Counted from the first letter of the stretch, positions 555 to 54,597 are shown. The stretch: DNA of 64,000 nucleotides from Alphaproteobacteria bacterium (GCA_031549365.1 JAVBPX010000003.1:1-64000), one strand, 5' to 3'. The notes: a model not told the origin generated them from the letters alone. Made by a program: numbers and translations.

Positions 555-2177
555 TTATCTACCACCACGAGAACGCGCCGATCTTTGAACCGAGGATGGT
601 TCAACAATTGTTATATCATATGCAACCGCAATCCAATCAAAATATTGTTCCAATATTGCTTCGCGCGCGGCCCCAACAGCCTGCGATCTTGGGTCGTTTG
701 CTGGGAAATCCCAAACCAATGTGAACGCAGGTGTTCCCATCGGAATAATCCCGGACTGAAACGACATACGATCCAATAATTTAAATACGCTGTCTGCCGA
801 ATGTACAGAATTTAAAGTTGGGTTGAAAACAAATGTACCTGACGAAGATTTTTCAATACCGATCTTGCCAGATGTTGTGTTATCTGCGGATTTAGCGGCA
901 CGTAAAAATTCAGAGTTTTCATATTCGTTGTTTGTTTGATAGTGTATACCTGCCAAAACAGCCTTCATAATCCAAATGCTGTTTTTATCAAATGACGATG
1001 CAAAGGTATTAAATTTTTTGATATCTTCAAAATTTACTGTACCAAAATTGAAATAATTATTATCGCTTCCGGTAAATTTAATTGAATTCATGTTTGATTC
1101 ACCAAATTTTGCAATCAAATCTGAAATTGATCCTGTGATTTTTCCATTTGGAACAACACGTTTTGTATCAATAAATTTATCATCAATGTTTTGGATTGTT
1201 GACCAAAGCGATGCATCGGCGACCAAAACATCTGATTTAATTTTTACAGCATTTTCTTTGTTAATATTTGCCGGTGCCGCTGTATCAAATTTAAATCCAT
1301 TTGATTTAATATTTGGTTCGTTCATTTCGCGGTATTTTTTCGCAGTCATATCAACCGAACCATTTGCCGACAAATTGTTTGCGCGGATACCGGCAACGTT
1401 ATCGGATGTTTTAACTGTCAAATTGTTGATTTTTATTGATGCGTTTTCAAAACGTTTTTCGTTCAATTTGGTCAAATCGGTTACATTTTCCATGTACCAA
1501 ACACGACCATTATCACCAGATTTTAATTTTTCAGAACGCGCATTCAAAAATGCGTCATCAATTGTTACGGCATCCGCGCCTGGTTTTAAAAATTCGGCTT
1601 CGACCTTGCCCGCGTCCGCCATCGAATTAATAATCGCGGTATTAACACGAACAGCCGTTCCATTATCAACGTTTACATCGCCCAAGTTTTCCAATTCATC
1701 AACAACAAAACGATTTGATGCGTTTATTGACGATGCAACAATTAATGGTTTTTCATTTGCATTATATTCGGCCAATTTTAATGTAACAGACGATGTTTTC
1801 GGTGCAATTTTTGCCGGTTTGCCCGGTTTTGCATAAACATTTTTGGCTTCGTTTAATTTTTTTGCATTTTCCAATGTATTTGCTGCCAATTCCCAAGTAT
1901 CAGTATTCATGACAACAAAAACGGAATCTTTGGCCCCGATGAACAAACGGGATGAATCCGCAGCCGATGCCAATTGTTCGTGAACCAATTTTGGATCAGA
2001 AATTTCAATTGTACATTTTTTATCCCAATTTATTGGTTTTGGATCTGGGTCTGGGTCCCTGCGACATGATGTGGCCATTAAAATGGTTGCCAATGCGGTC
2101 AATCCAAATCCGCGAATTGTGCGCGAATTAAATAATGTTTTGAAACCCTGTTCCAGCTTTTCTGTACGTTTTGTCAT
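555..2177 (-). CDS. hypothetical lipoprotein, 540 aa, Bacteroidota-style lipobox, C-terminus RSRGGR
   Basis: Hydrophobic stretch LTALATILMATS-C followed by RRDPDPDPKP; SD AGGAGG and TTGACA-17-TATATT promoter upstream. Confidence 0.75.
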   Translation of the reverse strand: MTKRTEKLEQGFKTLFNSRTIRGFGLTALATILMATSCRRDPDPDPKPINWDKKCTIEISDPKLVHEQLASAADSSRLFIGAKDSVFVVMNTDTWELAANTLENAKKLNEAKNVYAKPGKPAKIAPKTSSVTLKLAEYNANEKPLIVASSINASNRFVVDELENLGDVNVDNGTAVRVNTAIINSMADAGKVEAEFLKPGADAVTIDDAFLNARSEKLKSGDNGRVWYMENVTDLTKLNEKRFENASIKINNLTVKTSDNVAGIRANNLSANGSVDMTAKKYREMNEPNIKSNGFKFDTAAPANINKENAVKIKSDVLVADASLWSTIQNIDDKFIDTKRVVPNGKITGSISDLIAKFGESNMNSIKFTGSDNNYFNFGTVNFEDIKKFNTFASSFDKNSIWIMKAVLAGIHYQTNNEYENSEFLRAAKSADNTTSGKIGIEKSSSGTFVFNPTLNSVHSADSVFKLLDRMSFQSGIIPMGTPAFTLVWDFPANDPRSQAVGAAREAILEQYFDWIAVAYDITIVEPSSVQRSARSRGGR

Positions 2178-2213
2178 AATTTGGCCTCCTATATCCTTTG
2201 CCTATATTCGTAA

Positions 2214-2240
2214 TATAGCACTAATTTTTTATTTGTCAAG
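2214..2240 (-). promoter_or_regulatory. sigma70-type promoter of the 540-aa gene (approximate limits)
   Basis: Minus strand TTGACA-aataaaaaattagtgc-TATATT with extended -10 TG. Confidence 0.65.
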
Positions 2241-2383
2241 ACAATTACAAATATTTTTTATTCATTCGCTATGCCCGGCTAGCCGTGGGATAAAAGTCAT
2301 AAATCATTGTTTTTTGCCATAAAATTATATCACAACCAATGCCAATTTGCAAGTTTTTATGGAATTATGTGGAGATCGCACCC

Positions 2384-2995
2384 TCACCGGCCGTGGAACA
2401 TTAACATTTGTTGCGATAATTCGCGGGTATATTTTTGTGATTGGCGCATCATTTGTCTAATTATTTTGGACATGCGTGGGCGCGCGGGATTATATTTTGT
2501 CCCAATTAATCGGGTCATGAAAAAATAATGTATATCCATGCAATCCAAATAAAATTCGTGTTCAAATTCATGTTGAATATATTTTTTTGATTTAATTTCG
2601 AATTCATTAATTGGACGAAATGAATGACGGACGTTCGATTCCGGGTCTTTGTCGCAAAATTGCATAACATCGCGCCAACGGCTGGCGTATTCAGGGGCAT
2701 TGAAAAATAACGGATCAAAAATAACAACACGACCGTCAACCACAACACCAGCCGCCACATGATATGTGGCCGCATGCCACGCGTTATTATTTATATCGAT
2801 TAATAAATTGTCATTACGACGGCGACGTTCACCGATCATCACAGTTATCGGTTCATATCCGTTTTCCACCAATTTTTTACATATATAATTTGCACGGTAA
2901 AAACAGCCGTCGCATGGAACATCCAAAAACAACATTGGATCTTCGACCAATTCGTTGAATATAGAAACCAGTCCGCGTAAATTTATTGCCTTCAT
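2384..2995 (-). CDS. protein-glutamine glutaminase (deamidase)-like protein
   Basis: Motifs DGCFYRAN, YHVA and VIFDPLF match the Cys-His-Asp triad pattern DGCYARAH / WxYHVA / VxDPSLF; own TTGACA/TATATT promoter and GGGGG SD. Confidence 0.75.
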   Translation of the reverse strand: MKAINLRGLVSIFNELVEDPMLFLDVPCDGCFYRANYICKKLVENGYEPITVMIGERRRRNDNLLIDINNNAWHAATYHVAAGVVVDGRVVIFDPLFFNAPEYASRWRDVMQFCDKDPESNVRHSFRPINEFEIKSKKYIQHEFEHEFYLDCMDIHYFFMTRLIGTKYNPARPRMSKIIRQMMRQSQKYTRELSQQMLMFHGR

Positions 2996-3086
2996 ATTGC
3001 CCCCGTTGTTTACAGAAACAATATATCGGATATTTATTTTTTGTCAAGCGAAAAACGCGATTAAAATCATAAAATTTCATAATATT

Positions 3087-3188
3087 GTCATCGCGAGCGC
3101 ACGCGTGGCGATCCAGTAATAAAATGATCGCAACGCGACATTATATTGATTCAATTTAACTGAATCCTTTCGCCATGCTCAGGATGAC
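3087..3188. repeat. REP/RPE-like palindromic element
   Basis: Begins GTCATCGCGAG..GTGGCGATCCAG and ends CTGAATCC..CTCAGGATGAC, with complementary termini GTCATC/GATGAC and an internal TCGCAACGCGA hairpin. Confidence 0.55.
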
Positions 3189-3301
3189 CAGGAATAAAGA
3201 CCTCATCCCCGGGAAGGCAAAAAGCTTAAAAACTTAGGACAACGCGCTTACCCAATCAAAGATTGGGCTCCTTGTTACATAAATGAGGAATGACAATAAA
3301 C

Positions 3302-3331
3302 AAAATCCCCTGGATTGCTCCGGGGGATTTT
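3302..3331 (-). terminator. intrinsic terminator of rpsF-rpsR-rplI
   Basis: AAAATCCCCTGGA-TTGC-TCCGGGGGATTTT hairpin just past the rplI stop. Confidence 0.75.
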
Positions 3332-3352
3332 GCCTCAGTCTTCCAAAATCGC

Positions 3353-3898
3353 TTATTCAGCAATTTCTTCGGATTTTTCAGCTGTTTCTTTTTCAACAGC
3401 TTTGTCGGCGGCTGGTTTTGCCGATTTGCCGGCAACCAATGCTTCGATTTCTTCGTTCGTTGGCGCAATGTAAACACGAATTGGCACAATAACATCGGCG
3501 TGTAATGCAACAGATGTTTCAACCATTCCAACTGTTTTAATTGGATTGCCCAACAAAATTTGATTTGATTCAACAGCAATACCCTGATCGGACAATGCGC
3601 GTGCAATGTCACGTGTGGAAACAGAACCGTATAAATGGCCTGTATCCCCTGCTTGGCGGATCATGTATAATTTTGCTTTTTCAACTTTGGATACCAAAGC
3701 TTCTGCTGATTTTTTTGCAGTTGCGTGTTTAGCTTCCAAATCTTTTTTCTGTTGTTCAAATACTTCGGCATTTGCTTTGGTAAAACGCAATGCTTTTTTG
3801 TTTGGCAACAAATAATTTCTGGCGTATCCTGTGGCCACATCAACAACGTCGCCGATGTTTCCCAAATTTACCATTTTTTCAGTTAAAATAACTTTCAT
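3353..3898 (-). CDS. rplI: 50S ribosomal protein L9
   Basis: MKVILTEKMVNLGNIGDVVDVATGYARNYLLP and GHLYGSV motifs; rpsF-rpsR-rplI order. Confidence 0.97.
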   Translation of the reverse strand: MKVILTEKMVNLGNIGDVVDVATGYARNYLLPNKKALRFTKANAEVFEQQKKDLEAKHATAKKSAEALVSKVEKAKLYMIRQAGDTGHLYGSVSTRDIARALSDQGIAVESNQILLGNPIKTVGMVETSVALHADVIVPIRVYIAPTNEEIEALVAGKSAKPAADKAVEKETAEKSEEIAE

Positions 3899-3910
3899 TT
3901 AAACCCCCAA

Positions 3911-4476: not shown

Positions 4477-4481
4477 CAATA

Positions 4482-5076: not shown

Positions 5077-5077
5077 C

Positions 5078-12573: not shown

Positions 12574-12764
12574 ATTAAAAGCGCCATCTCTCTGGACAAA
12601 GAATCCCCCTGTGTTATCAAAAAATTTTATAACCTGGGGATAATACATATCAACAATCAAAAATTTCATTTAAAAAAAAATATATTTTAATGCACTTTTG
12701 CCTTGCGCGACCCAGTGATATTTTAGTATTGTGTTCCTGTGAAGTGTGGGAGCATTATGGAAAG

Positions 12765-15700
12765 ATGTTAAAAAAGTTAAATTCTTTTCTAGGTTTTTTT
12801 GCCTATTTTTCTGTGTTTTTATACACTGCGGGCCCTGCACAGGCAACTGATTGGCACGTGCCGACCGATTCTTTGCAAACCGCTATTGAAAACGCGACGG
12901 ACGATGACAATATAATAATTGACGCCGAAGTAACCAGCAATTTGGCGTTAACCCCAACACCTTTTGTAATCGATAAAAAGCTACATTATTCCAGTAATCC
13001 ACCGGGCCCATATGCAATAAATATGTATGTTAGTGCTGTTGCAGACTCTAACCGTCATTTTAATTTTTCATCTGGGGCTTCGGGAACTACTTTTACCAAC
13101 CTTGCGCTGAATAATATTATGAATGTTGGGTTATCAGCTGCAATATCTATGGGCGGGGCAATTTATACCGATGGCGCTGATTTGACTTTGAACGGGGTAA
13201 CATTTGGCGGGACCCGTGGCAATCGCGTAGCAGATGCTGGGGGCGCAATTTATAGCATAAACGGCAACCTTGTAATAAACGATGGTTCCCGCTTTTCAAC
13301 CAGCTCGGCCCTGTCGGCAACCAGCACGGGGGGTGCAATTTATATTGAATCCGCAACCTTGGAAATAAATGACTCTGTTAATTTCACAACTAACAAGGCG
13401 GCATTGGGTGGCGCAATTTATGCAAAAGACACCGCCATAACATTAACTGGAAATACCAATTTTACATCAAATGCTGCGACTGGCGGGTTAAATTTGGGTG
13501 GGGCAATTTATTCTGATGGCGGTGACATAACAATTGATGCGGCAACGTTTAATTTAAATACTGCGACAAATGGCGCCGGGATATATATAACAGGTGCAGA
13601 CATTGATATCACCGGGGCTGCGTCATTTACATCAAACACCGCGACCGAATCTGGGGGCGCAATTTATTCTGATGGCGACTATATAACAATTGGCGATGGT
13701 GTCTATTTTATTTCTAACAAGGCGAAAATCGGTGGCGCAATTTACGCAAAAGATGTGTTAATAACATTAAATGGGGCCAATATTTTCACTTCAAATGCTG
13801 CAACCGGCGGATTAAATCTGGGTGGCGCAATTTATTCTGATGGCGGAGACATAACAATTGATACAGCAACGTTTAATTTAAATACTGCGACAAATGGCGC
13901 CGGGATATATATAACAGGCGCAGACATTGATATCACCGGGGCTGCGTCATTTACATCAAACACCGCAACAAATTTGGGTGGTGCAATTTATTCTGATGAT
14001 GGCGATATAACAATTTCCTATGGCACCAGTTTTACTTCTAACAAGGCAGCAAATGGTGGCGCAATATATATTAATAGCGGAAATCTTGATATTGACACTG
14101 CAACATTTGCATCAAATACTGGAACAACTGCTGGCGGCGCAATTTTCGCCCAAGGCGATGGAATAACAATGAATATTGCTGGTATTGATGGAAACGACAT
14201 GGCAATATTCCAGGGCAATATCAGTTCCGGAAATTTGGATTCCGTACGTAAAATTGGCGCAGGCGCAATATTTTTCGACGGAATAACAGCGGTTACGGAC
14301 GCTTCGTTTGATTCAGGGTTCGACCCCAGCGCGTGCGCATTGTGCATTTCATATACCAAATTCGATTCGAACAAGGCAAATGCCAGCGTTGGCGGCGCAA
14401 TGTATATTAATAATACCACCGCAACAATTTTGAACAGTGAATTTTCTAGCAATACGACTGGTGTCAATGGTGGCACAATGGGTGCTGCGATTTATAATGG
14501 ACCCGGGGCGAAAACATACATCGAAAATACTTCCTTTATCGGCAATTCAACTATTGCTTCTGCGGCATATGGTGGGGCTATTTATAATTCTGGATTTATG
14601 AAACTGGTTAATGTTACCGTTTCTGGCAACAGCGCAAAAACATGGGGCGGCGCCGTTTTAAGCGGGGGAAACTTTAATAACGGGGAAGCAGAATTTTCCC
14701 CCGAGATAACAGTTATTGATAGCTATTTTTATCAAAACCTCTCTATCGGGGGCGGTGGCGCGTTTGGCTCTGCCGATAATTCAGCAAGGGCAGATGTTAT
14801 AAATACTAAATTTATTGAAAATTCTGCTCAACACGGTGGTGCGATTTATAATGAAACTGTTGTTAATATAAAAGATTCTGAATTCACCAACAATATTGGA
14901 ACAAATGGCGGAACCGGTGGCGGCGCTATATGGAGTGGTGCAAACTGGGCCATTGGTGAAAAACTTGATTTAACCGTCGATAATTCGACATTCACTGGGA
15001 ACAGAACCAGTTCCGCGGGCGGCGCAATATATTTAAACATATCATCTACTACTACAACTGATCCACGCTTTCCCGACTGGAAATACCCGGACACGAATAC
15101 AACCAGGATTACAAATTCTTCGTTCAACAATAATCTGACGACTGGCACTGGAAATGGCGGGGCAATTTATGCCAACGTTTCCCTGGGGGGATCTTTGATC
15201 CAAGACAGAAAATTAATACTGGATATTGATACTGTTACTTTTGATGGAAATTCTTCCGGGGGTAATGGGGGGGCGATTTTTATCAGCACTGAATATGCCG
15301 ACACCGCAAACAACAAGGTTGGTACTGCGACATTAACAATTAACGACACAGACTTTACAAACAATGTGGCCGCGACAAATGGTGGCGCTATATACGGATC
15401 TATGACCAGAGCGGGATCGGAATTGAACATAACTCTGTCTGATGTTGACTTTGATTCCAATACGGCCGGCACAAGTGGGGGCGCGCTGTATTTGTCCGGA
15501 CAATCGGCAACAACCAGACAAAATACAACAATATCAAATTCAACTTTTGACAATAACAAAGTTAGACGAATTGCCGTAATTGGCGCATCATACACGTTGA
15601 GTGGCGGGGCGATAAATAATGCTCAGAATTCAGACCTGATCTTTATCGGCAACCACGAATTTAACGCAAACAATATTGATGGATCTTTGACCAACACAGG

Positions 15701-18700
15701 GACCGGAACAGCCAATTTTAGTTTGACCATGAATGCATACGGCAGCGCGATTTACAACGCAACAAACAGCACCATAGATTTTGGAACATTTGTGTTTGAA
15801 TTTAATGAAAACTTTGCAGAATCTGTTGTTAATGCAACAAATTCGGGAACTTTTGTTTCAACCTCCACCGCAAATGCACATGGCGGGGCGTTTTATAATT
15901 CTGTAAACACGACAATTGAATTTAACCCAGGTTCAGTATTTGATGAAAATTCTGTATACGCCGAGGCGAATTCGACAAACACCGGAACTGGCGCTGCAAA
16001 CGCCACAGCCAATGCATATGGTGGCGCAATTTATAATTCCGCCGCAGGGATTATAAATATTCAAAACTCGTCCATATTCGTGAATAATGCCGCGGCGGCT
16101 GTTGCAACGTCAACTGGATCCGGGACAAAAACAACAAATGCAAATGCTTATGGCGGCGCGATTTATAATACAGGAACAAATTCAGAAATTAATATTATGG
16201 GTCTCGAAAAAACTGGAATCGACGAAACCCGTGTTGTATTCCGCGGGAACAGCGTAATCGGTGGTGCTGCTAATACATTTGGTGGTGCGATTTATAATGC
16301 TGCCAAATTAAATATTACATACGCATTGTTTGAAAACAATCTGTCATCGGGACTTGGCGGCGCGATTTATTCCGCAAATCTGCCAATTACATTTGATGAA
16401 ATTGAATTTTCCGGAAATTCTTCTGATGTTGCCGGAGGCGCACTGTATATTAATGTTGCAGCCGGGACATTTAATCTGAATAATGTAACATTTACGTCTA
16501 ATTCGTCGCTTGATGGTGGAGCATTTTATTCCAAAATGGCAACAAATGTTTCCGATACTGTTTCGTTTACAGACAATACTGCGACCGGATTCGGCGGAGC
16601 ATGGTATATCAACAGCGGAACTGTAAATTTAAATGCTGCTACATTTACTGGAAACTCTGCCGCAACAGGTGGTGGCGCAATCTATAACAATGGAACATTA
16701 AATGTTAATGGCGGCACAACATTCGCAAACAATTCTTCGACAACGGCCGGCGGCGCGATTTATACAATGCAAAATCTGACATTGAATTCAACAGCCGGCA
16801 ATATAAATTTCACAAACAATACTGTTGCTGGTGTTGGGAACGATATTTATATCAATGGGATTACAGCACGTACAATTACAATTAATGGAACAACAAACAA
16901 TGTCATTATGAACGGCGGCTTTGCAACCAATGGCACACCAAACAGCGGTAATCACACTATTACAAAAACTAATGCTGGCAACTTGCTGGTTACCGGCGAT
17001 AATTTTGGATTTACCGGGACGTCGACAATATCCGGAGGCCAAGCAATCATAGATGGCAAATGGATAAACGGATTAACAACGGTTAACAACGCCCTGCTCC
17101 GCGTGACCAGCGAAACTGTTCATGAACGCGTAACCGTCGCCAATTCTGCTGGAATTTTTGAACATTTATCAAATTCTTTGACCAGGTCAGACATTGCAAA
17201 TACCAATTTTAAATTTTCTGTTGGATCTGGCGCAACGATGAAATTTATGGCAGATTCTTCACTGGTTGGACAATTGGCAAAATATAATTTGGCAAATAAT
17301 TTGGCGTTTACACTTGTCGGAACAAACAATGTATTGTTCAAAGATTCTGATGTTACATTTGGGATTAATTCATATCTGAAAAATTCCAATGGATGGATAA
17401 ATTACACATTCCAGGATTCTGTTATCAACCTGGGCAATGCGGCCATCGAAACAACCAGTTTTCAGCAAATAACATTGGATAACGCAAAATTGTCATTTGA
17501 TGTCGGCTTTAAAACTGATGGAACTATTGATTCGGATAAAATTGCAATCACAACATTGGGCGGAGAGAATACAATAAAACTGGGTAATGTTTATTCCGTG
17601 AACGGACAAAATGACAACGGTTTGACACAGGTTTATACTTCCCAGGTTTTAATGCCAACTGGATTAAATTTCGATTCGTCATTAACCACAACAGTTAAAT
17701 CTGATATATACGAATATCTGGCGACCGTCAGTGGGAAAAATGTAACCCTGACTGTTATTGGGGCCGCGGATGAAAATTCTTTGTATGCTGCAAATGCGCA
17801 AACGGGAACACGCTCGTTTAATATGACATATTTTACGGCGACACCATATACATACAACATCGGTCAAAACCTGGGGGCTACGTCAAATGGGACATTTAAT
17901 GTTGTTGGAAATTCAGCTGCAACCAGTATAATTTCTGGAATATTGGTCGATTCTGATGGCACACCAATTGGGGGCAAAGGATCATTCTTTGACGTTTCCG
18001 GCACAACAAATTTAACACTGGAAGCTATCAGCATTGTTGATGCATACAAACTGGGCGATGGCTCTGTATTGTCTGTTAACGGAGGCGGATCTACAATTAA
18101 TTTAAACAGCCTAACTTTGGCAAATAACGAAGCAACCGCGAATGGTGGTGCGATTTATAATTCTGGCGTTATAACAGTTACTGGCAACAGTAGTTTTGAA
18201 AACAATATTGCGGGATTAAATGGTGGTGCGATTTATAATTCTGGGACTTTATTTTTGAATTCAAACACAGGGAACATCGTATTCTCAGGCAACACCGCAA
18301 CTGGGGATGGGAATGACATATACAACAATAGCGGCACAATAAATATTAACGGAACTGGGAATGATGTAATTTTCAATGGGGGAATCGCTGGAAACGGAAC
18401 CATCAATAAATCCGGAGCCGGACGATTGGTTATAAACGCCGATGTTTCTGATTTTAATGGGATATTTGCTCAGAGTGCCGGGACAACAATATTTTCAGAC
18501 GTCATGTTTGATGGCAATATTAACGTTTCTGGGGGAACCGTTGAAATTGCAAATGGTGGTGAATTTTCAAATAACTCTGTGCTTGGATTATCCAGCGGCG
18601 GCACACTAAATATTACAACGGGATCAAACATTATACTGACTGGTGGAAATTTAACTGGACTTTCTGGAACATACGGAACGGTTAATAAATCTGGGGCAAT

Positions 18701-21700
18701 GGATTTGATTTTGGATGGAAATAATTCCGTATTCCGCGGCATATATAACCAAACGGCGGGCAGAACCCTTGTTGATTCCACAAGTTTGATGTTTAATGGC
18801 ACAAATAATATTTCAAACAGTATTTTGGAAATTTCGGCATTGACTGTATATGAAAAAGCAAACATTGGCAACAATGGTCAACTGATACATACCGCGGAAA
18901 TTGCTATAACTTCGGCAATTAATGATGGAAATACAAATTTACAGTTTATTGGAACTGGCGGCAGCATGCTGTTCGATGCATCCACGTCTTTGGCAAACGG
19001 AACCAATTATAATTTGGCCAATAAAATTGATAACGGCAATTCAAATACTGTTACTTTTAGTAAATCAAATGTTTTATTGGGGGCAACAGATTACACAGGT
19101 GGAACCACATACGCATTTAGCAATTCCACGATTGATTTAAATTCTGGGGCACTGAACAATGTTGTATTTTCCAAGACCAAATTAACCAATGCAAAGCTGT
19201 CATTTGATACGCGTTTTGCAATGTCCGGAAGCGATCCTGTATTAACATCAGATACATTTAATGCGGGCACATTATCAGGGGACAGCACGATAAACATCGG
19301 AATAATAAGAATTTTGAACGATGATGCGGACACAGGACTGTCCGGGATGTATACGTCCCAAGTATTGTCTGATTCATCGTCTCTGACCTTTGGCGGATCT
19401 TTGGACACGATGTATTTGTCTACGAATGTTTATGAATACGAGGTTACAACCAACGGGAAAAACGTCCAACTGTCTGTTGTAAATGCTGCGGATATAAATT
19501 CTTTGTACAGAATGAACGACACAGCAAACAAACGCGGATTTAATATATCATATTTTTCTGGCTCTGCTGTTTATTACAACATCGGACAAAGTTTGGGCAT
19601 AACCAAAGACGGGGAATTTATAGTCCAAGGTTTTGACAATGATCCAGAACATGGTATAATTTCCGGTGAAATAGTTGATCAAAACGGCGATTCAACTGAC
19701 TCTTATGGCTCATTCTTTAAACTGGCCGGGGCTACGATTTTTACATTGAAAAACCTGACTATCGAAGACGCGTATTCTGTTGGTTCTGGATCTGTGCTGT
19801 CTGTGACTGGGGCAGCGTCATCCGCATTGGTTGAAAATATGATATTGCAAAATAATGAATCCGTCGGAAACGGTGGTGCTGTTTATGCGACTGCTGGGGA
19901 ATTGCATATCGGGCAAGCAATTTTTGATTCGAATAAATCCGGTGCAAATGGTGGGGCGATTTATAATTCGGGTAATACATCTTCTGTTGGGACAACAAAA
20001 TTCGAAACTAATGTCGCTGTTTCAACCGGTGGGGCGATTTATAATTCGGGCACCATCAGCTTTGCCGACTTGGTTGAATTCATTTCGAACAGATCGGTTG
20101 ATGGTGCGGCTGTTTATAATACTGGGACCACTGGATTTAACGGCGTTACAAATATACAGTCAAATATCGCCACAGGCAACGGTGCTTTATATAATTCTGG
20201 GAACACTACATTCTATAACGAAGTTAACATGATCGCAAACTCGTCTTTAAACGGCGGTGCAGTTTATACAAATGGCGGCTTGTTAAGCCTGAGAGCTTTG
20301 GCAAACTTTGAAAACAATAATGCAACAACAAGCGGTGGCGCATGGTATATAAATTCTGGAACAATAACAGTTCTGGACGAATTGATACTTGACTCTAATT
20401 CTGCGAACGCTGGAAATGGCGGCGCAGTATATGTATCCAATGGCGGCACATTAAACATAAACGGTGATGCAACAATATCGGATAACGATGCTCTGTCTGG
20501 GTTCGGTGGCGGAATATATCTGGCTGGAAATATGAATCTGGGCGGAACATCAGCAACAGATATTGTGTTCAGTGGAAATTCTGATAGCTCTGGGTTAAAC
20601 GACGTTCACATTGCGAATACTGGCGTATTGTCTGCAATTGGCTCTGGCACATACAGCTTTGATGGGGGCATTTCTGGCGATACAGGATCCGCAATATCCG
20701 TCAGTGGTGCCGGGGCCCGATTCAGCGCAGAAATGACCGACTTTATCGGAAATTACACTCAAAGTGGGACTCTGTCGTTATCGCAAATATATGGTATATT
20801 AAATGCAAATTATACTATAACCAATGGGGTCGCTCAATTCATCGATTCTGGATTATCCGCGGGCAAAACGATCACTGTTAATGGGAACGGTATTGCACAA
20901 TATTTGGGTTTAAATTCTGATAATCTGGGAACTGTTACAGGGTCTGGGACATTGGTTGTTGCCAACACATTGACCAATACTGGCACGATTGATGTTGGAA
21001 CATTGCGCATTAATTTTGACACCATAAACGACGGTACTATTGATTCTGATTCAACAATTATAAATGCGGATGTTACCAATAATTCCGCAATATCTGGAAC
21101 CGGGACAACAACAATTATGGATGGTGCCAATTTATTAAATCTGGGCACAATTCAACAAAATCGATTAATTATAAATTCTGGTGCAATAACTGAAACAATT
21201 GCTGATGATTTGACGATTGCTAATGGAATTACAAACAATGGAACACTGATATTTAATGGCGGGACCAATGCAAACGTTATATCTGGGAGCGGCCTTTTAC
21301 AAATTATTGATGATGTAAATAACACTGCTTTGATTTCCATTGGAGATGTAGAAATCATATCCGGCAAAGAATTTAATTCCAACGCATCAAAAATTTCCGC
21401 ATCAAATGCCATACAGAACCAAGGTTTGTTGAATCTGTACGGCAATGGCACATGGACTTCTGCCGTAACGGGGACAGACGGAACCACAACATTTGGCAAT
21501 GGCACTCTTAATAATACCGCCACAATCCAACAAAAGGGCTTGGTTGTAAATGGGGATGGTATATTTATTACTGATGGTGGATTAATACAAACCGGCGACG
21601 ATGGAATAATAGTAAACGGCACACTTAATGTTACCAGGGGGAATTTGACCGCTCAAACAATATCCTTGGTATCGTCTGGACCATCTGATGTTCCGACATT

Positions 21701-32616: not shown

Positions 32617-32648
32617 CATAATTTAATTTGTGTTTATTATTTCCATCT

Positions 32649-32837
32649 ATGAAAGATACAAACAAACCAAAACGCCGTTTTTTTGATCCAATTGAAAATG
32701 AATTTTTATCTGGATGCATTATTCCAATTGTTTTTTGGACGGCTGTTTTAATTGGCGTTTATCATATTGGATACTATCGCGGCAAAGCCGCACAACGCCA
32801 CCAAATCGAAAAATTACAATCCGAAAAATCCAAATAA
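32649..32837 (+). CDS. small single-TM hypothetical protein
   Basis: MKDTNKPKRRFF.. with one hydrophobic segment; TTGACA-16-TATTAT promoter immediately upstream. Confidence 0.6.
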   Translation: MKDTNKPKRRFFDPIENEFLSGCIIPIVFWTAVLIGVYHIGYYRGKAAQRHQIEKLQSEKSK

Positions 32838-36375: not shown

Positions 36376-36508
36376 AATGTTTTCCTTTTTGTTAAACAGA
36401 GCCCCAGAATACCACCCAAACAATCAAAAGTCAATTTTTGATATATTTTGTTGACAAAGCCGATATTAACGTCTATATTGTGAATAAAATCAAATACGAG
36501 GTGATAAC

Positions 36509-36892
36509 ATGGTTAACAAAGACACTATTATTATGGCGAACGAGCTGAGAATCATCGCAAGCCACTGGAAAGTAATAACAGACATGTTTAAATTAATCGA
36601 AAAAACAATCACCCAATTTAAACGCGATGCAAAGAGTATTGTTAGATCCAAACAAAGCGAATTGTTTACTCGGCACGCATCAGAAATTCGCGGATACGCC
36701 AATGTAATAACAAGCCATTATCGCGAAATTAAAAAAAGCAAACAAATTATTACCAACTTGAAATTCGCAGAAAAAGAAAGATTGGAATACGAATTAGCCG
36801 CAGAAATTAGCAATACGCACGCATTTGAATCCAATTTCAAAAGCACCAAGGCACAATTAAAAGAATTGGGATTCCAGGGATTACATCGTTAA
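36509..36892 (+). CDS. lineage-specific helical hypothetical protein (ends GLHR)
   Basis: TTGACA-17-TATATT promoter and SD GAGGTG. Confidence 0.75.
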   Translation: MVNKDTIIMANELRIIASHWKVITDMFKLIEKTITQFKRDAKSIVRSKQSELFTRHASEIRGYANVITSHYREIKKSKQIITNLKFAEKERLEYELAAEISNTHAFESNFKSTKAQLKELGFQGLHR

Positions 36893-36906: not shown

Positions 36907-37314
36907 ATGGGAAAACAAGAATTTGAAAATAAAATTCGAAACGATTTAATGATTTTCAAAACAAAAATGGATTTTTGTTTAATCCAGGTTGTTTCTATGT
37001 CTGAATTCTTGGATAATTTTGAAATGAAAGTTGGCGAACAAATTGGACAAAATAGTTTAAATCACATTTCTGCATCTGTTGTAAAAGAGCAAATTTTCTA
37101 TCTGTTTCGCATTTTAAAACCGTTACGCATTGCCGCAGGACAAGTTGAAAACCGATTAAAAAAATTAAACGCTTTTGACTATCGCCAAAACCATGAATTA
37201 ATTGAATTGATGAATATTGCTATGTCTGCCAGGGAAAAATACGATCGAATAATTCGCGACAATGCCGATCGATTTCAACGATTGGGATTGATAAAAAGCA
37301 CAATGACCAAATAA
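36907..37314 (+). CDS. lineage-specific hypothetical protein (ends MTK)
   Basis: SD GGGGG; co-oriented with its neighbours. Confidence 0.7.
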   Translation: MGKQEFENKIRNDLMIFKTKMDFCLIQVVSMSEFLDNFEMKVGEQIGQNSLNHISASVVKEQIFYLFRILKPLRIAAGQVENRLKKLNAFDYRQNHELIELMNIAMSAREKYDRIIRDNADRFQRLGLIKSTMTK

Positions 37315-37382: not shown

Positions 37383-38069
37383 ATGTTGTATGCTGTACAA
37401 AAACCTCAGACACCTGTTATTGCTTATCGAGGACCTGCAGATGATGCATTAAATAATAAACCTGGGGAAAAAAGATCCGAAGTAAAATTAAAACCGCACG
37501 AAAGGTTACAGCAAGCAATTGTTGATAAAAAAATTACGCTAAGCGAAAACGCAAGCGAAGATCAAACAATGTTTAACATTGGGAATTTACGTAAATATAT
37601 TAAAAAACAAAAGCAAATTGATGAAATTCCAGAAACTCAGAGATATTTGACCCAGCAAAAGGTTAATTGGACCGTTTACAAATGGTGTCTGGATGAAGTT
37701 TCCAAAACGTTAAATGAATATCACAAAGAAAAAAACAAAGACCCGCACGGCGCGTTTGGTTCGGCGTCCGTTGAATTAACTGCGTTAATGATGTATGCGT
37801 TCGAAGCACACGAACAATTGATTTCAACAAAAAACGTATTGCTGTCTAAAAGGATTAATTTGGATAACGGAAAAAACAATACAAAAAATCCCGAGTTTGA
37901 TAAATCAGTTAAAAAAATTATAAAAAAAGATCGCGAATGCGAAAAAATTGAACGCAGCCTTGCCCGACGCTTGTTAAAGGCAAAATTTATTGATATTTCT
38001 GTTGCCGAAGAACAACGAAATAAATTGTGCCGATATATGTATAAAATGGGCTTCTTTAACGAGAGATAA
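37383..38069 (+). CDS. lineage-specific hypothetical protein (ends FNER)
   Basis: TTGACA at 37321, SD AAGGA, terminator immediately downstream. Confidence 0.75.
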   Translation: MLYAVQKPQTPVIAYRGPADDALNNKPGEKRSEVKLKPHERLQQAIVDKKITLSENASEDQTMFNIGNLRKYIKKQKQIDEIPETQRYLTQQKVNWTVYKWCLDEVSKTLNEYHKEKNKDPHGAFGSASVELTALMMYAFEAHEQLISTKNVLLSKRINLDNGKNNTKNPEFDKSVKKIIKKDRECEKIERSLARRLLKAKFIDISVAEEQRNKLCRYMYKMGFFNER

Positions 38070-38118: not shown

Positions 38119-38439
38119 CTAACCCTTTTTCACATCACGCAATTTTTTATAATATTCGGGTTTTACTGATATTGATGTTGTATAACGATTGATTATGTTG
38201 CCATCGTCGCCAACCTCGGCCACGGATATTTGTTTGGCCGTTTTCAAATGATTTCGAACACTTGTTGGCATTTCCGTCAAAACCAATCCTTCGACCATGT
38301 TTCTCCGTAACAACGCTGCCCGGCGCCCATCATAAATTAACACGGGTCGTTCAACGGGCGTCATGCGTTCACGCAATACCAAAACCCAGTCGGCATTGCG
38401 ACGCACAATCATGTCAAAATATGGTTCAATTGTAATCAT
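38119..38439 (-). CDS. hypothetical protein
   Basis: 106-aa ORF with PVLIYDG motif; TGATATTAT lies 6 nt before the ATG. Confidence 0.7.
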   Translation of the reverse strand: MITIEPYFDMIVRRNADWVLVLRERMTPVERPVLIYDGRRAALLRRNMVEGLVLTEMPTSVRNHLKTAKQISVAEVGDDGNIINRYTTSISVKPEYYKKLRDVKKG

Positions 38440-38888: not shown

Positions 38889-39488
38889 TTATTTTCCAAC
38901 AACGTGTCGAATATATCCCGGCACAATGTCATCAGAAACAATATCCGAAGATATTATTTTTGCGCCATTTGGCAATATAAACCTGTTTACATCTAATTCC
39001 GTCGATATCGTATCAAGATTGGGATTAGAGCCCAAGTCAAATTTTAGATTATTAACAGAATTTTTATCCAAACCGTTTGAATACATATGAATTTGAAATA
39101 TTTCGCTACCACTATTTTTCATAATTGTATTAAAATCCAGCGGATCAATTTCTCCATTACACATCGCATATAGAAATGCGTTTGAAACACAAATTTTTGA
39201 AGGATCCAAATATTTCAGAATTTGCCATGCTGGGATTTTTGGATTGCGTAACTGAAACATTGCGAATCCTTTGGGAAAACGAAAGATTACATCCGGGTAA
39301 TAATTGCGAAGCAACATTAATTTTCCAAAATTGAATTGCAATTCGCCCCAAGGCAAAAATTCAGACATATTAAAATCAAAAACTTTATCACCGCGATCAA
39401 TGCTGGGCAAATAGCCAAAATCCAATAATTTTGTAATATTAATTGGCGCTTTCTGAGAAATTTGTTTTGTATGATGAAAGTATTTCAA
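38889..39488 (-). CDS. hypothetical protein (ends VGK), start uncertain
   Basis: 199-aa ORF filling the gap downstream of rnpB; TTGACA near 39547 on the minus strand. Confidence 0.6.
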   Translation of the reverse strand: MKYFHHTKQISQKAPINITKLLDFGYLPSIDRGDKVFDFNMSEFLPWGELQFNFGKLMLLRNYYPDVIFRFPKGFAMFQLRNPKIPAWQILKYLDPSKICVSNAFLYAMCNGEIDPLDFNTIMKNSGSEIFQIHMYSNGLDKNSVNNLKFDLGSNPNLDTISTELDVNRFILPNGAKIISSDIVSDDIVPGYIRHVVGK

Positions 39489-39554
39489 GTTATTTATCCA
39501 GGTTATGTGCGGGCCGGATAATGTACCAAAATAATTTAAATGTCAAGAAAATAA

Positions 39555-49002: not shown

Positions 49003-50016
49003 ATGGCAAAAAAAATTCGCGTTGCAATTAACGGATTTGGTCGTATTGGACGCTTGGTATTACGCGCAGCATTGGAATCCGGACGATCGGACATTGAATT
49101 CGTTGCAATTAACGATTTGGCACCAGTGAATGTATCGGCCCATTTGTTGGAATATGATTCGGTTCATCGTCATTTGGATAAAAAGATTAAATTCGGCAAA
49201 GACTTCATTGAAATTGATGGAAAAAAAATCCCGGTGTTTGCGGAACGCGATCCGAAAATGTTGCCTTGGAAAAAATTAAATGTTGATATCGTTATGGAAT
49301 GTACCGGCATATTTACCGCCGCAGACAAAGCGCGAGTTCATTTGGATGCCGGCGCAAAACGAGTATTGGTATCGGCCCCATCCGATGGCGCAGACGCCAC
49401 TATCGTATACGGCGTTAATGAAAAAACTTTGAAAAAATCACATAAAATTATTTCAAATGCTTCGTGTACAACAAATTGTTTGGCCCCGATTGCATCCGTG
49501 TTGGATGAAAAATTCGGAATTGTTTCCGGATATATGACAACATGCCATGCTTATACCGGCGACCAACGTTTGGTTGATACTGAACATCGCGATTTACGCC
49601 GCGCACGCGCAGCCGCCATGTCAATGATTCCATCGTCAACGGGCGCTGCCAAGGCGATCGGTTTGGTATTACCAAAATTGGCCGGCAAATTGGACGGAAC
49701 ATCAATCCGCGTTCCAACACCGGACGTATCTGTTGTTGAACTGGTCGTTTCGTTAAAAAAGAAAACAACCGAATCCGAAGTAAATATCGCAATGGATGCG
49801 GCCGCAAAAAAACAATTGAAAAACATTTTGGGATACAATCAACACCAATTGGTATCGATTGATTTCACACACGATCCACGCAGTTCAATTTTTGATGCAA
49901 CCCAAACCAAAGTAATTGGCGGTAATTTGTTGCATGTAACCGCCTGGTACGATAACGAATGGGGATTTTCAAACCGCATGTGCGACACCGCTGTTGCGAT
50001 TGGCAAATTGATTTAA
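49003..50016 (+). CDS. gap: glyceraldehyde-3-phosphate dehydrogenase type I
   Basis: INGFGRIGR, SNASCTTNCLAP, WYDNEWGFS. Confidence 0.97.
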   Translation: MAKKIRVAINGFGRIGRLVLRAALESGRSDIEFVAINDLAPVNVSAHLLEYDSVHRHLDKKIKFGKDFIEIDGKKIPVFAERDPKMLPWKKLNVDIVMECTGIFTAADKARVHLDAGAKRVLVSAPSDGADATIVYGVNEKTLKKSHKIISNASCTTNCLAPIASVLDEKFGIVSGYMTTCHAYTGDQRLVDTEHRDLRRARAAAMSMIPSSTGAAKAIGLVLPKLAGKLDGTSIRVPTPDVSVVELVVSLKKKTTESEVNIAMDAAAKKQLKNILGYNQHQLVSIDFTHDPRSSIFDATQTKVIGGNLLHVTAWYDNEWGFSNRMCDTAVAIGKLI

Positions 50017-50057: not shown

Positions 50058-50128
50058 TGTAGTATATTCTTATTGACAATACTTTTCGTTTGTTACAAAA
50101 TGAAAGTCATAAACCAAAGGATTATATT

Positions 50129-50548
50129 ATGTGGACAAATAAAACATGGTTAAACAAAAAATGGGTTAATTTGCAAGCGATTACGAAAATCAAGAATAAA
50201 GCAGATAAATCATCTGTGGCAACAGAAGCAGAGTTTTCAGATTTTGAAAACGCTGAAATAGTAAAGTTTTTGGATTTGGGATATGGCCTGCGCTATGTTG
50301 GCGGAGCGATAAAGTTATACCACAGCCTGAAAGAGATTATGCCAATACTATCGAAACACAGATCAAACAATTCGGTGGACTTGGTTTGGAGCGAATCTTT
50401 GGAATATGAAATTGGGATAACAAGAGAATTACATCTTTTGGATAAGATTAAAGATTTAAAAAAAGAGCTTGCAGAAGTCGAATTAAAAAACATAGAAAAA
50501 GCGCGTAAATTAGTGGAAGATATGCGCGAAATATCAAACGGAAGATAA
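50129..50548 (+). CDS. lineage-specific hypothetical protein (ends SNGR)
   Basis: TTGACA at ~50074, SD AAGGA before ATG 50129; coiled-coil C-terminus. Confidence 0.7.
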   Translation: MWTNKTWLNKKWVNLQAITKIKNKADKSSVATEAEFSDFENAEIVKFLDLGYGLRYVGGAIKLYHSLKEIMPILSKHRSNNSVDLVWSESLEYEIGITRELHLLDKIKDLKKELAEVELKNIEKARKLVEDMREISNGR

Positions 50549-50549
50549 A

Positions 50550-50840
50550 ATGTCCCCATATCCCAGTCCCAGAAAAATTAAAAAATTATGCAATCACCTC
50601 ATCGATTTAGCCCACAGTTCTGGTTTAACTTTTTCAGAACGCCGACGTTGTTTGTCCTTGGCCGAAATGCTGTTAATAATGTCCAACAACCCCAATACCC
50701 CAATCGATGCGGTTAAATTTACATACGATGTGGCAATGTCCCACGCAAACACAGTTGAATATAATAAAAGAGATCGTTACCTGAAAAATTTAAAGCATTT
50801 GGGACAACGCGCCATCGAAAAATTTAATCTGGGCCGATAA
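50550..50840 (+). CDS. lineage-specific hypothetical protein (ends NLGR)
   Basis: Starts 1 nt after the upstream stop (coupled). Confidence 0.65.
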   Translation: MSPYPSPRKIKKLCNHLIDLAHSSGLTFSERRRCLSLAEMLLIMSNNPNTPIDAVKFTYDVAMSHANTVEYNKRDRYLKNLKHLGQRAIEKFNLGR

Positions 50841-50941
50841 GTTCGGCCATTTTTTTATAAATAAACCCGATATTAATTCTTGACAAAATGATTTATTGTG
50901 CTAGATTATGACTATAACGACCATAATCAAAGGAGAGCGAT

Positions 50942-51286
50942 ATGGACCGGAATCAATACAAATCAAAATTTTTCTCGGAATCCACACCATTGAACATACC
51001 ATGCGCTGCCGATTTGCTGGAAATGTTCCAAGAAACGCGCGACGTTACCGGATTAAAGAAAAGAGAACGCTCATTACGCGCCCATTTTTATCGTAAATGT
51101 TTACGCGCCATTAACGAGTGTATAATGATTTCCGATTCTGATTTATGTGAAATGGCAAAGTTCGCACATAAATTGGAAAACATGAAAGAAAAACAAGAAC
51201 AATCAATGTTGCACTTGGATTATTTAAACAGCCCTGCAATTTATGGATCACATTTACGTTATATTGAACGCAACAACGGAAAATAA
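50942..51286 (+). CDS. lineage-specific hypothetical protein (ends NNGK)
   Basis: TTGACA-16-TAGATT promoter, SD AAGGAG. Confidence 0.7.
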   Translation: MDRNQYKSKFFSESTPLNIPCAADLLEMFQETRDVTGLKKRERSLRAHFYRKCLRAINECIMISDSDLCEMAKFAHKLENMKEKQEQSMLHLDYLNSPAIYGSHLRYIERNNGK

Positions 51287-51297
51287 GAGGAAAAATT

Positions 51298-51780
51298 ATG
51301 ACAAAAAGAATTAATATCCCTGAAAACTATCGCCCTTCGATAAATGATTTTATTTCATTGAACGACTTGTTATTAAAGCTGAAAAATGTAAAGAGATTAT
51401 CCCAACACCGCGCACTAGTTAACACATGGCAAAAACAATGCGAAGCCATTGCTGATTTTTTGGTAGCCCAAGTGAAAAACGATATGATAATAACTCGGAA
51501 ACTCCCAAATCAGGAAAAACATAACATGGCCCGCAATGGGTTTATAACCGATCAAAACCATGTTGATTTCTTTCATAAAATTGCGGATTTTGCATTAAAT
51601 GCCCGTCCTATGGTTTCAAATAATGTTTTGAATTCCATTGAATGCTCCAAAGACGATTTCCAGGAACATTATGCAGAAATGGCCCCCATTGTGCATGTTG
51701 TTGAAGATAAAAAGTTTTACAGCCCATTGTCAGAAATCAGGGCCAGCGCAAATTCCAAATATCACCTGGCCAGCAAATAA
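51298..51780 (+). CDS. lineage-specific hypothetical protein (ends LASK)
   Basis: SD GAGG; terminator AAAAATCCCC..GGGGATTTTT at 51801-51832. Confidence 0.7.
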   Translation: MTKRINIPENYRPSINDFISLNDLLLKLKNVKRLSQHRALVNTWQKQCEAIADFLVAQVKNDMIITRKLPNQEKHNMARNGFITDQNHVDFFHKIADFALNARPMVSNNVLNSIECSKDDFQEHYAEMAPIVHVVEDKKFYSPLSEIRASANSKYHLASK

Positions 51781-51919
51781 TATTTTGCGTTAATTTAAAC
51801 AAAAATCCCCGGGGCACCCTTGGGGATTTTTTCATATTAAAAAACTATAAAAAATAAAAAAATCAAGTAATTTTTTTAATAAATGGTGCCGTATATCCGC
51901 CATTTTTTGATTTTTATGA

Positions 51920-53047
<1,128 letters not shown>

Positions 53048-53138
53048 TACAAAAATGTCAAATTTTTAAAAATTTCCCTTGAAATTACAATAATTATCAT
53101 GTATATTGGGCCGCATACGAATAAAACAGAGGTATATT

Positions 53139-53348
53139 ATGAAAAAAGGAATTCACCCAGAATATCACACAATCAAAGTAACTTTGGTTGATGGAAAAAC
53201 AGTTGAAATGTTTTCTTCTGTTAAAAAAGACATGGTTTTGGACACAGATCCAACAAACCACCCTGCTTGGACCGGCAACCGCGTTGTTGCAGATCGTGGA
53301 CAACGTTCAGACAGCTTTAAAAAGAAATTTTCTGGCTTTAAATTTTAA
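53139..53348 (+). CDS. rpmE: 50S ribosomal protein L31
   Basis: MKKGIHPEYH..LDTDPTNHPAWTG; SD GAGGT. Confidence 0.95.
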   Translation: MKKGIHPEYHTIKVTLVDGKTVEMFSSVKKDMVLDTDPTNHPAWTGNRVVADRGQRSDSFKKKFSGFKF

Positions 53349-53414
53349 TTTAATGGGGTTTTGTTAAAAAGCCCCATATCTTTTTGTAAATATGTAAACA
53401 ACGGGAGTTATAAA

Positions 53415-54155
53415 ATGACATTAACAAATGAAATTCGTATCAAAGGTTCGCAAACATTAAACCAAATGTTCGAAGCATTAACGAAAACAGCCCGCGGTTT
53501 ACAACGCGATTTCGGAGAAATCGAAAATCTACAACGTTCTTTAAAGGGGTCAACTGGATTTGTTGAAAAAGCAATTCAGAGGATCGAAGCAATGATTTTA
53601 TCCGATTTACAATTGGTTCGCCCTCACGCCGGCGTCATTACAACAAATGTTTCCAAAATGGGAACCCAGGACGAAGAATTCATATTATCATTATCCGGTG
53701 CCGACAATTTTGTTCGTGGAATTTCACATTTTGCTATTTCATTGGCATTACGCGTACGCGGCAATGTTGAAATCGCATTAATTTACAGTCCAATTGATGA
53801 TCGGTTATATTATGCCGAGGCTGGCGAAGGCGCATACATATTTTCACCATTTCATCGTCAACGCATGCGCGTATCGGAACGTATGGATCCGGCCGATATT
53901 TTCGTTGGAACGGATATGTTATCGCATGAACAATTGAAAAAAATTCCATTTAATCATATTCGTTTAACTGGATGCCCTGCACTGGATATGGCATGGGTTG
54001 CTGCCGGCAAATTTGATGCTTTGATTATGGAGCAAAAAAATTACGCTGAAATCGCAGCCGGGGATTTAATCATCCGCGAATCAAATGGATTGATTATTTC
54101 CGACGATAACGGTATTATTTGTATAAACACAGCATTAAAAGATACAAAATTTTAA
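53415..54155 (+). CDS. suhB: inositol monophosphatase-family protein SuhB (degenerate active site)
   Basis: ARGLQRDFGEIENLQ..KG, NFVRGISHFAISLAL, ALDMAWVAAGKFD; adjacent to rpmE. Confidence 0.75.
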   Translation: MTLTNEIRIKGSQTLNQMFEALTKTARGLQRDFGEIENLQRSLKGSTGFVEKAIQRIEAMILSDLQLVRPHAGVITTNVSKMGTQDEEFILSLSGADNFVRGISHFAISLALRVRGNVEIALIYSPIDDRLYYAEAGEGAYIFSPFHRQRMRVSERMDPADIFVGTDMLSHEQLKKIPFNHIRLTGCPALDMAWVAAGKFDALIMEQKNYAEIAAGDLIIRESNGLIISDDNGIICINTALKDTKF

Positions 54156-54165
54156 GAGGTTTGAA

Positions 54166-54597
54166 ATGAATTATCATATCGACAGACACTATTCAGATGA
54201 CATTCGTGGTCAAAGCCAAAATAAAAAACCATTTGCGGACGCCGCGTCTTTGAATAAATCAATTGAACTATTGGAAGCCATAATCAAAAAATGCAATTCC
54301 AAAAATGGGAATCCTTTCATTGCCGCCAGGGCAATGAAACTGGTTTTTCGGGCAAAAAAGTTGATGGCAGAATCGGAAAATCCCGCATATACAGTTAAAA
54401 CCATTGCAAAAAATGGGCCCGCAAAAGATATCGAACAATTACCACGTGTATTAAAAGCAGACTTGACCCATATCCAAGGCGAGATGGACACATTTATTAA
54501 AATGGCCAGAGGAAACGAAACCTTGAGCCCTGTTGTAGCAAAGATTATTGGTCTGTGTCTTGAACATATTGCGAAAGACAAAATCCACGGGATATGA
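54166..54597 (+). CDS. lineage-specific hypothetical protein (ends IHGI)
   Basis: 143-aa ORF, SD GAGGT. Confidence 0.65.
   Translation: MNYHIDRHYSDDIRGQSQNKKPFADAASLNKSIELLEAIIKKCNSKNGNPFIAARAMKLVFRAKKLMAESENPAYTVKTIAKNGPAKDIEQLPRVLKADLTHIQGEMDTFIKMARGNETLSPVVAKIIGLCLEHIAKDKIHGI

Follow-up and report, generated by a model that had tools for sequence, protein, structure and literature searches.

Do otherwise unrelated proteins of one small bacterial genome share a C-terminal residue, and if so, what might read it? The question is raised by a 64,000-nt stretch of DNA from Alphaproteobacteria bacterium (GCA_031549365.1, JAVBPX010000003.1:1-64000), hereafter the window, which corresponds to C7:1-64000 of the source genome, G000. 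A sequence-only reading of the window had picked out 13 lineage-specific open reading frames (ORFs) between positions 555 and 54,597, 11 of them ending in arginine (R) or lysine (K), and had proposed that a basic ending, G-[R/K] in particular, marks effectors for translocation or, alternatively, proteins for proteolysis. We find that terminal arginine is enriched in the fast-evolving proteins of this genome and of two others from the same family, at the last position only, and that the genome encodes a type IV secretion machine of the VirB/VirD4 kind whose coupling protein, VirD4, might recognize it.

An excess of terminal arginine in accessory proteins

G000 comprises 911 kb in 15 contigs and is 97.6% complete. 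Our comparison set consisted of 40 relatives, none from G000's own genus, and genomes in its family (f1) and order measure 0.5-1.1 Mb. Genes were called with our own dicodon-score caller, which returned 835 genes covering 85% of G000; the scripts are crude, but start-site errors are harmless here because C-termini depend on stop codons alone. The same caller was applied to G015 (874,588 b) and G013 (882,323 b), two complete genomes from other genera of the family. Genes of each genome were then compared with the other two by tblastn, those with a match in neither being classed as accessory and those with a match in both as conserved.

The sequence-only reading had expected an enrichment of terminal R throughout the genome, and tabulating all C-termini bore this out. 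Arginine ends 44 of the 225 accessory proteins of G000 but only 19 of its 536 conserved ones (Fisher p=5e-12), and the excess recurs in G015 (28/168 versus 21/529, p=2.6e-7) and G013 (35/182 versus 20/570, p=1e-10). Across the three genomes, therefore, R is the last residue of about one fast-evolving accessory protein in five, compared with about one conserved protein in 30. Leaving the window out of G000 and classifying against G015 only gave 39/240 versus 19/536 (p=3.5e-9). Accessory proteins are not richer in arginine overall, their Arg content (4.4%) being slightly below that of conserved proteins (4.8%), and in conserved genes R is found at the end in 3.3% of cases compared with 4.8% expected from overall composition.

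Only the last residue shows the excess. In accessory proteins the frequency of R is 17% at position -1 and 4-8% at each position from -2 to -15. Terminal lysine shows no such difference: it ends 20-31% of conserved and 21-29% of accessory genes in the three genomes and, as the sequence-only reading had itself cautioned, is unspecific, ending 23.8% of all 835 called G000 genes. Terminal Lys thus lies outside the specific signal. G-[RK] endings are also more frequent in accessory proteins of G000 (20/225 versus 6/536), and accessory tails in this genome have raised G (14%) and S (12%) at -2 and raised N (12%) at -3; of these, the excess of Gly at -2 is seen again in G015, though not in G013. The tag as first defined therefore stands for its arginine, and not for its lysine, which is generic, or its glycine, which is not family-wide.

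The last codons indicate the level at which this bias acts. The three most enriched in accessory genes are CGA (8.0-fold), AGA (7.0-fold) and CGT (4.5-fold), whereas GGA, GGT, AGT and TGT stand at 0.5- to 1.0-fold. Because both Arg codon boxes are enriched, selection must act on the amino acid, which in turn is evidence that these ORFs are translated. Nor do a few expanded families account for the pattern: across the three genomes, 575 accessory proteins fall into 524 families, so paralogy was rejected as a cause, and 95 of the 491 singletons (19.3%) end in R. We conclude that the terminal-Arg bias is real, specific to the last position and present across hundreds of unrelated families.

Several artefacts were considered. 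Among unselected ORFs of at least 40 codons in all frames, 6.1% of 9708 end in R. The excess is present in all five length bins and at all four coding-score thresholds, and a second, simpler ORF rule gave 45/238 versus 21/614, which together rule out spurious ORFs, length or coding score as its source. Terminator stems that happen to encode G-R overlap the last codon in just 1 of 107 accessory R-ended proteins (window 50550-50840). A downstream ribosome-binding site is not the cause either, because R-ends are rarest where the next gene lies within 25 nt (12.6%, compared with 20.7% and 24.2% before convergent or distant neighbors), a trend opposite to the one expected.

Arginine-ended proteins are mostly soluble and carry positive tails

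We next divided proteins by a crude hydropathy split into soluble proteins, those with an N-terminal hydrophobic segment and those with a transmembrane (TM) helix beyond residue 60. Terminal R is found in 84 of 349 soluble accessory proteins (24.1%), in 19 of 168 with an N-terminal hydrophobic segment and in 4 of 58 with a TM helix, so that soluble accessory proteins exceed the remaining accessory proteins (23/226) at p=2.6e-5. In core soluble proteins the figure is 26/913 (2.8%). Seen from the other side, 84 of the 107 accessory R-ended proteins lack both kinds of segment, the exceptions including the product of window 555-2177.

These 107 proteins are short (median 174 aa) and basic, with a net charge per 100 aa of +4.1 compared with +1.5 in other accessory proteins. 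Their tails are positive as well: the net charge from -2 to -25 is +1.93, versus +0.74 in accessory proteins whose last residue is not R or K (p=8e-5), and D or E is absent from position -3 in all 107. Hydrophobic residues occupy 19-27% of positions -2 and -3, and K+R at -4 is at baseline (16%), with no sign of a C-end pattern of the form R/K-x-x-R/K.

Scanning seven long R-ended proteins for domains returned a lysozyme-TPR protein, a HEAT-methyltransferase, a radical-SAM enzyme and four proteins without a domain. The first of these, G000 C1:53344-54969 (minus strand), is an accessory protein of 541 aa that has a hydrophobic segment at its N-terminus, a phage-lysozyme domain, TPR repeats and a very basic tail ending KKAVAKKQVARR. 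It may be a peptidoglycan-degrading effector or a VirB1-like part of a secretion machine.

G000 encodes a VirB/VirD4 machine

No secretion apparatus lies in the window, and the sequence-only reading had suggested a search of the whole genome for virB/virD4. That search found VirB3 and VirB4 (C15:72153-74866), VirB8, VirB9 and VirB10 (C9:1356-5126), a VirB11-like ATPase (C8:56762-57751) and VirD4 (C8:62260-64410). These type IV secretion genes are chromosomal and scattered over three contigs, as B3-B4, B8-B9-B10 and B11 with D4. All 41 genomes sampled from the order carry VirD4, as do 47 of the 121 sampled from the class. The type III/flagellar marker FHIPEP and the type VI marker TssC were both sought in G000, and neither was found. 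A complex prediction that paired VirD4 residues 130-715 with the 96-aa product of window 50550-50837 scored 0.02, which is no evidence either way.

Two loci beside the machine genes contain other features. Two paralogues of an AMP-binding enzyme lie between virD4 and virB11, and a pair of accessory genes lies between virB3-virB4 and mutS (L187:9735-12222). One of the pair, C15:75735-76319, resembles Gln_deamidase_2/papain-fold toxins and ends FGRE; the other, C15:77374-78222, is an ORFan that ends NGGK.

A probable placement can be given to the lineage. A GAPDH-like gene in the window (49003-50016) has its best matches in sequences labelled Candidatus Enterousia (71-74% identity), followed by "Rickettsiales bacterium" and then "Alphaproteobacteria bacterium" metagenome-assembled genomes, and ORFs of one Enterousia locus (L106) are 48-90% identical to those of G013. 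According to passages of a 2025 paper (PMC12306168), Enterousia is assigned to the order Rs-D84, gut bacteria with genomes below 1 Mb that likely depend on a partner cell. Judging from these sequence matches, the order of G000 is probably this Rs-D84/Candidatus Enterousia group. The words "secretion" and "effector" are absent from the main text of that paper. A literature search, which did not extend to supplementary tables, returned no paper that mentions both Enterousia and type IV secretion, although Rs-D84 and "secretion system" do co-occur in one.

Comparison with known C-terminal signals

Among described systems, the closest likeness is to Agrobacterium, whose machine is also an alphaproteobacterial type IVA system with VirD4 and whose substrates carry an uncleaved, hydrophilic, positive tail with arginines. 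Passages of PMC8525350, citing Vergunst et al. 2005, describe the signal of its VirB/VirD4 substrates as hydrophilic, Arg-rich, net-positive and C-terminal. We examined the endings of pTiC58 proteins and found GGNRR in the annotated VirD2, EGCGR in VirD3, AFNR in an 840-aa ORF after virD4 and SGLSR in a 312-aa ORF beside virK. The last two, which belong to four pTiC58 ORFs for which NCBIfam gave no names, are presumably VirD5 (840 aa) and VirF (312 aa). The R-endings of pTiC58 resemble those of G000 further in carrying N, G or S at -2. The two cases also differ: the excess here is confined to -1, with Lys supplying most of the other positive charge, and the G000 machine is chromosomal and dispersed over three contigs, with VirD4 conserved across the sampled order.

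Other type IV signals are more distant. Bartonella Bep proteins share with our set an alphaproteobacterial VirB/VirD4 machine and a positively charged C-terminal tail, but their signal, as described in parts of PMC8714903, is bipartite and requires a folded BID domain of about 100 aa that every Bep has, whereas the R-ended proteins here have no domain in common. The S4TE definition of an alphaproteobacterial effector tail, in the portion of PMC3814349 that gives it, asks that the last 25 residues contain at least three H/R/K and that the C-terminal charge reach 2 or more. Tails of this kind are found in 56 of the 84 soluble accessory R-ended proteins, in 169 of 349 soluble accessory proteins and in 308 of 913 core soluble proteins; a rule that a third of core proteins pass is loose, and in that portion it is silent on the last residue.

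The Dot/Icm (type IVB) signals of Legionella and Coxiella likewise sit uncleaved at the C-terminus and depend on position within the last 25-50 residues, according to passages of PMC3915618, and the pooled T4SEpre profile of type IV effectors in that paper is enriched in Glu, Ser and Lys, with arginine absent from its main text. A Dot/Icm-like signal, which would place a Glu-rich block some 10-17 residues before the terminus, was rejected: none of the 107 R-ended proteins has four or more Glu at -9 to -20, and mean D+E over that interval is 1.26 in accessory R-ended proteins versus 1.63 in core proteins. So was a sortase or exosortase signal (LPXTG, PEP-CTERM), since a hydrophobic 15-mer occurs in the last 40 residues of 3/107 R-ended proteins versus 37/468 other accessory proteins. 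A general preference for C-terminal Lys is known in bacteria; it covers the K-ends that we see in 20-31% of conserved genes, but not the Arg.

What might read the terminal arginine?

Taken together, amino-acid-level selection, confinement to one position, unrelated carriers, the bias toward soluble proteins, positive tails, the presence of a machine in G000, with VirD4 in every sampled relative, and the Agrobacterium precedent all fit the idea that VirD4 reads the residue. In this scheme VirD4 would recognize an Arg-capped tail (in G000, a terminal R often preceded by Asn at -3 and Gly or Ser at -2, with position -3 free of acidic residues), and the Arg-tagged proteins would be exported into a partner cell. 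From the sequence evidence, we hold it to be an even call, and the likeliest of the readings considered, that terminal Arg on a short positive tail forms part of a C-terminal recognition signal read by VirD4. A broader version, to which we would give somewhat less than an even chance, is that throughout the order the coupling protein of a VirB/VirD4 system reads a free carboxy-terminal Arg, tagging as injected effectors some 15-20% of accessory genes, or 30-45 proteins per 0.9-Mb genome. The translocation tag proposed for VirB/VirD4 by the sequence-only reading is to this extent supported in part, and circumstantially, by the machine, the soluble carriers, the positive tails, the R-end of VirD2 and a control genome without VirD4.

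In that control, the alphaproteobacterium G065 (the first 760 kb of 1.41 Mb, 33.5% GC, no VirD4 match), the accessory-conserved comparison gave 25/568 versus 6/227 R-ends (p=0.31) and, for soluble proteins, 2.3% versus 2.3%; it is, however, our sole negative control, its lifestyle is unmatched and its "no hit" class was defined against a different order. This limit is one of several points that weigh against a VirD4-read arginine. Because R ends no more than roughly a fifth to a quarter of accessory proteins, the residue is neither necessary nor universal. The R-ended proteins are basic overall, and some other property of basic proteins could therefore be what acts. Some carriers are unlikely substrates: 555-2177 looks like a lipoprotein, a TM helix or a hydrophobic segment at the N-terminus is present in 23 of the 107, one protein, judged by eye, looks like a thymidylate synthase, and one is the radical-SAM enzyme. 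VirB6/TrbL was not found in G000 with Pfam. In Agrobacterium itself, pTiC58 VirE2 ends TVNSL, without a terminal R, and the passages of PMC8525350 on the published signal describe a diffuse Arg-rich tail and state no requirement at the last residue.

Support for the R excess beyond family f1 is also weak. Two other families of the order (120 kb) show the same trend weakly (7/56 versus 3/55). For 80 metagenome loci near VirD4 relatives, a set of 925 kb with 882 ORFs in 333 clusters, R ends 13/81 versus 20/252 cluster representatives (p=0.052); counting all ORFs, which are not independent, gives 14/86 versus 54/796. Conservation of terminal R within a genus is weak as well, on a small sample. 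We compared G013 with 200 kb (~22%) of G024, both of genus g14 and with a median identity of 76%, and obtained 13 accessory orthologue pairs versus 181 core pairs (loci L226-L235). So few accessory pairs imply very fast turnover within the genus. Five of them have R in either member, of which two are R/R, two R/K and one has lost it. For conserved proteins across genera, 97 pairs have R in either member, with 11 R/R and 42 R/K; terminal R is not kept in these proteins, and Arg is therefore not special there. In G013, three tandem accessory paralogues (C1:43597-46680) end KWQNSK, WHQNQK and QQLHTR, keeping a basic last residue on tails that have diverged.

If VirD4 is not the reader, other forces could place arginine at the end of these proteins. 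Arg at the C-terminus, or its codon immediately before the stop, might alter termination, tmRNA tagging or protease recognition and so set stability or dosage with no export at all. G000 does encode a two-piece alpha tmRNA (C2:15924-16299; Rfam alpha_tmRNA, 158 bits, missed by ARAGORN), and in E. coli SsrA tagging is reported to be promoted by rare Arg codons ahead of a stop. The two top-enriched codons here, CGA and AGA, belong to the less used ones for Arg. The most used one, CGT, is nevertheless enriched too, and all four tRNA-Arg genes are present. Such an effect should also hit conserved genes equally or more, yet R-ends there are at 3.5-4%, and it gives no account of either the split between soluble and signal-peptide proteins or the positive tail from -2 to -25. 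Known bacterial C-degrons, moreover, are non-polar. We consider this explanation unlikely. The proteolysis tag that the sequence-only reading had offered as its alternative loses its C-degron form, since these tails do not fit the definition of one, and persists within this unlikely explanation as tagging induced by Arg codons before the stop. A sorting role is likewise unneeded if the arginine serves each protein's own function or acts in the target cell, for instance on nucleic acid, a membrane or a host factor. Short, basic proteins would suit such a role, but there is no obvious reason for 95 singleton families, unrelated to one another, to share one last residue, and neither an enrichment of R at -2 to -15 nor the R/K-x-x-R/K pattern is seen; we think this quite unlikely.

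Export by another route, such as TolC-dependent type I secretion or loading into vesicles, seems to us more doubtful still. Two genes for TolC-like outer-membrane factors are present in G000, and R-ended proteins mostly lack signal peptides; type I substrates, too, carry uncleaved C-terminal signals. Type I signals, however, are described as acidic or hydrophobic, often following Gly-rich repeats, and the tails here are basic. G000 also has a secretin and a T2SSE ATPase, which would handle proteins with signal peptides; that route would need the Sec or Tat signals that R-ended proteins lack. There remains the view that nothing specific is present, only a generic bacterial leaning toward basic C-termini, coincidence, a selective list, ORFs that are not genes, or a DNA or RNA motif at the ends of genes. 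Generic terminal K, the selective list of ORFs and the terminator stem that contains the G-R codons of 50550-50840 all speak for it. Against it stand the low frequency of R in unselected ORFs, the survival of the excess under length, score and ORF-rule controls, the single terminator overlap, the enrichment of both Arg codon boxes, replication in three genera and absence of the excess in G065. This view is highly improbable, and for Arg it is largely excluded.

Were VirD4 indeed the reader, the signal would be anchored on a single residue and so be sharper than any described type IV signal; we know of no terminal-residue rule for such signals. Diffuse signals make type IV effectors difficult to predict, and one anchored on the last residue would lend itself to easy testing by point mutants and easy searching of genomes. 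The effector repertoire, and through it the partner organism, could then be read from metagenomes. This would provide a first handle on how abundant uncultured gut bacteria with genomes below 1 Mb act on a partner, and about a fifth of their fast-evolving genes would be devoted to doing so.

Accessory ORFs of the window

For the window, an ORF was called accessory when it had no tblastn match at E<1e-5 in G015 or G013. By this rule the window holds 22 accessory ORFs, six ending in R and eight in K, whereas its other 37 ORFs include four that end in K and no case of terminal R. The endings quoted for the original list of 13 ORFs are all present in the sequence, but the list was selective and omitted nine accessory ORFs. 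Its observation that the Arg codons differ is confirmed (AGA, CGG, CGT, AGA, AGA and CGA), as is the statement that conserved genes here lack these endings: among the 35 that have a homologue in G015, neither R nor G-[RK] occurs as an ending, and K occurs three times. Its description of the ORFs as unrelated holds as well, since comparing 14 window ORFs with all 836 called proteins by blastp and phmmer yielded one related pair, 2384-2995 and C15:75735-76319.

At the left end, 555-2177 (minus strand) encodes 540 aa with a lipoprotein-like N-terminus (LMATSC) and ends RSRGGR (AGA TAA). It matches no Pfam family above cut-off and has no homologue among the 40 relatives. Beside it, 2384-2995 (minus strand; 203 aa) ends FHGR (CGG TGA) and has a Gln_deamidase_2 domain (papain-fold protein glutaminase; PF18626, E=1.3e-8), the sole Pfam domain among the listed window ORFs. 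Both proteins match only themselves among 5.8 billion proteins. The paralogue of 2384-2995, C15:75735-76319, lies two genes away from virB4 on its downstream side; G003 has a Gln_deamidase_2 homologue with the ending SSLSR, and the copy in G006 is interrupted by a contig end. Farther along, 32628-32837 (plus strand; 69 aa, ATG at 32649) ends KSK and sits between convergent genes. Its status as a gene is weak; its coding score is low (11.6) and its N-terminus hydrophobic.

A small island opens with 36509-36892 (plus strand; 127 aa, soluble), which ends GLHR (CGT TAA) and has a TTGACA box at 36451. It continues on the same strand with 36907-37314 (135 aa, soluble), which ends MTK with a generic K, and 37383-38069 (228 aa, soluble), which ends FNER (AGA TAA), has a terminator with a 13-bp stem directly 3' and gave no usable match in the ESM Atlas. 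The minus strand carries 38119-38439 (106 aa), an untagged island member that ends KKG, and 38889-39488 (199 aa), which ends VVGK and has a TTGACA box at 39546. The tail of 36509-36892 (KELGFQGLHR) resembles that of G000 C14:63450-63878 (RELGFAGR), although the two proteins are otherwise unmatched; this may reflect remote paralogy or convergence.

A second group, all soluble and on the plus strand, begins with 50090-50548 (152 aa, or 139 aa from the ATG at 50129), which ends SNGR (AGA TAA) and has a TTGACA box at 50073. It is followed by 50550-50840 (96 aa), which ends NLGR (CGA TAA) and whose last codons lie within a terminator stem, GGCCGATAA; this intrinsic terminator (50829-50848) starts inside the ORF, and GGC CGA TAA, encoding G-R-stop, forms the 5' arm of its stem. 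Next come 50942-51286 (114 aa), which ends NNGK and has a TTGACA box at 50880, 51298-51780 (160 aa), which ends ASK, and, farther on, 54166-54597 (143 aa), which ends HGI and is untagged. Net charge over the last 25 residues of the window ORFs ranges from 0 (50090-50548) to +6 (50550-50840).

Two further statements about these ORFs held in part. Most had been said to lie in their own TTGACA-promoter units, and the four boxes given above are exact; promoter-like sites as a class, however, do not exceed shuffled sequence (17 versus 13.5+-3.7, and 25 versus 17.4+-4.4). They had also been said to lack a standard signal peptide. Most tagged proteins are indeed soluble, but the crude hydropathy test flags 2384-2995 and 32628-32837 in addition to the lipoprotein-like 555-2177.

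Two other places in the window deserve mention. Toward its right end, 58923-59411 (plus strand; 162 aa) was called in preference to the overlapping 58793-59506 (minus strand; 237 aa), a call that is unreliable but leaves the R-end counts unaffected. The other, 12690-23519 (plus strand), encodes a conserved protein of 3609 aa with Chlamydia PMP repeats and a C-terminal OmpA domain, ending RRVDIMMF, which is probably a giant adhesin-like surface protein anchored to peptidoglycan.

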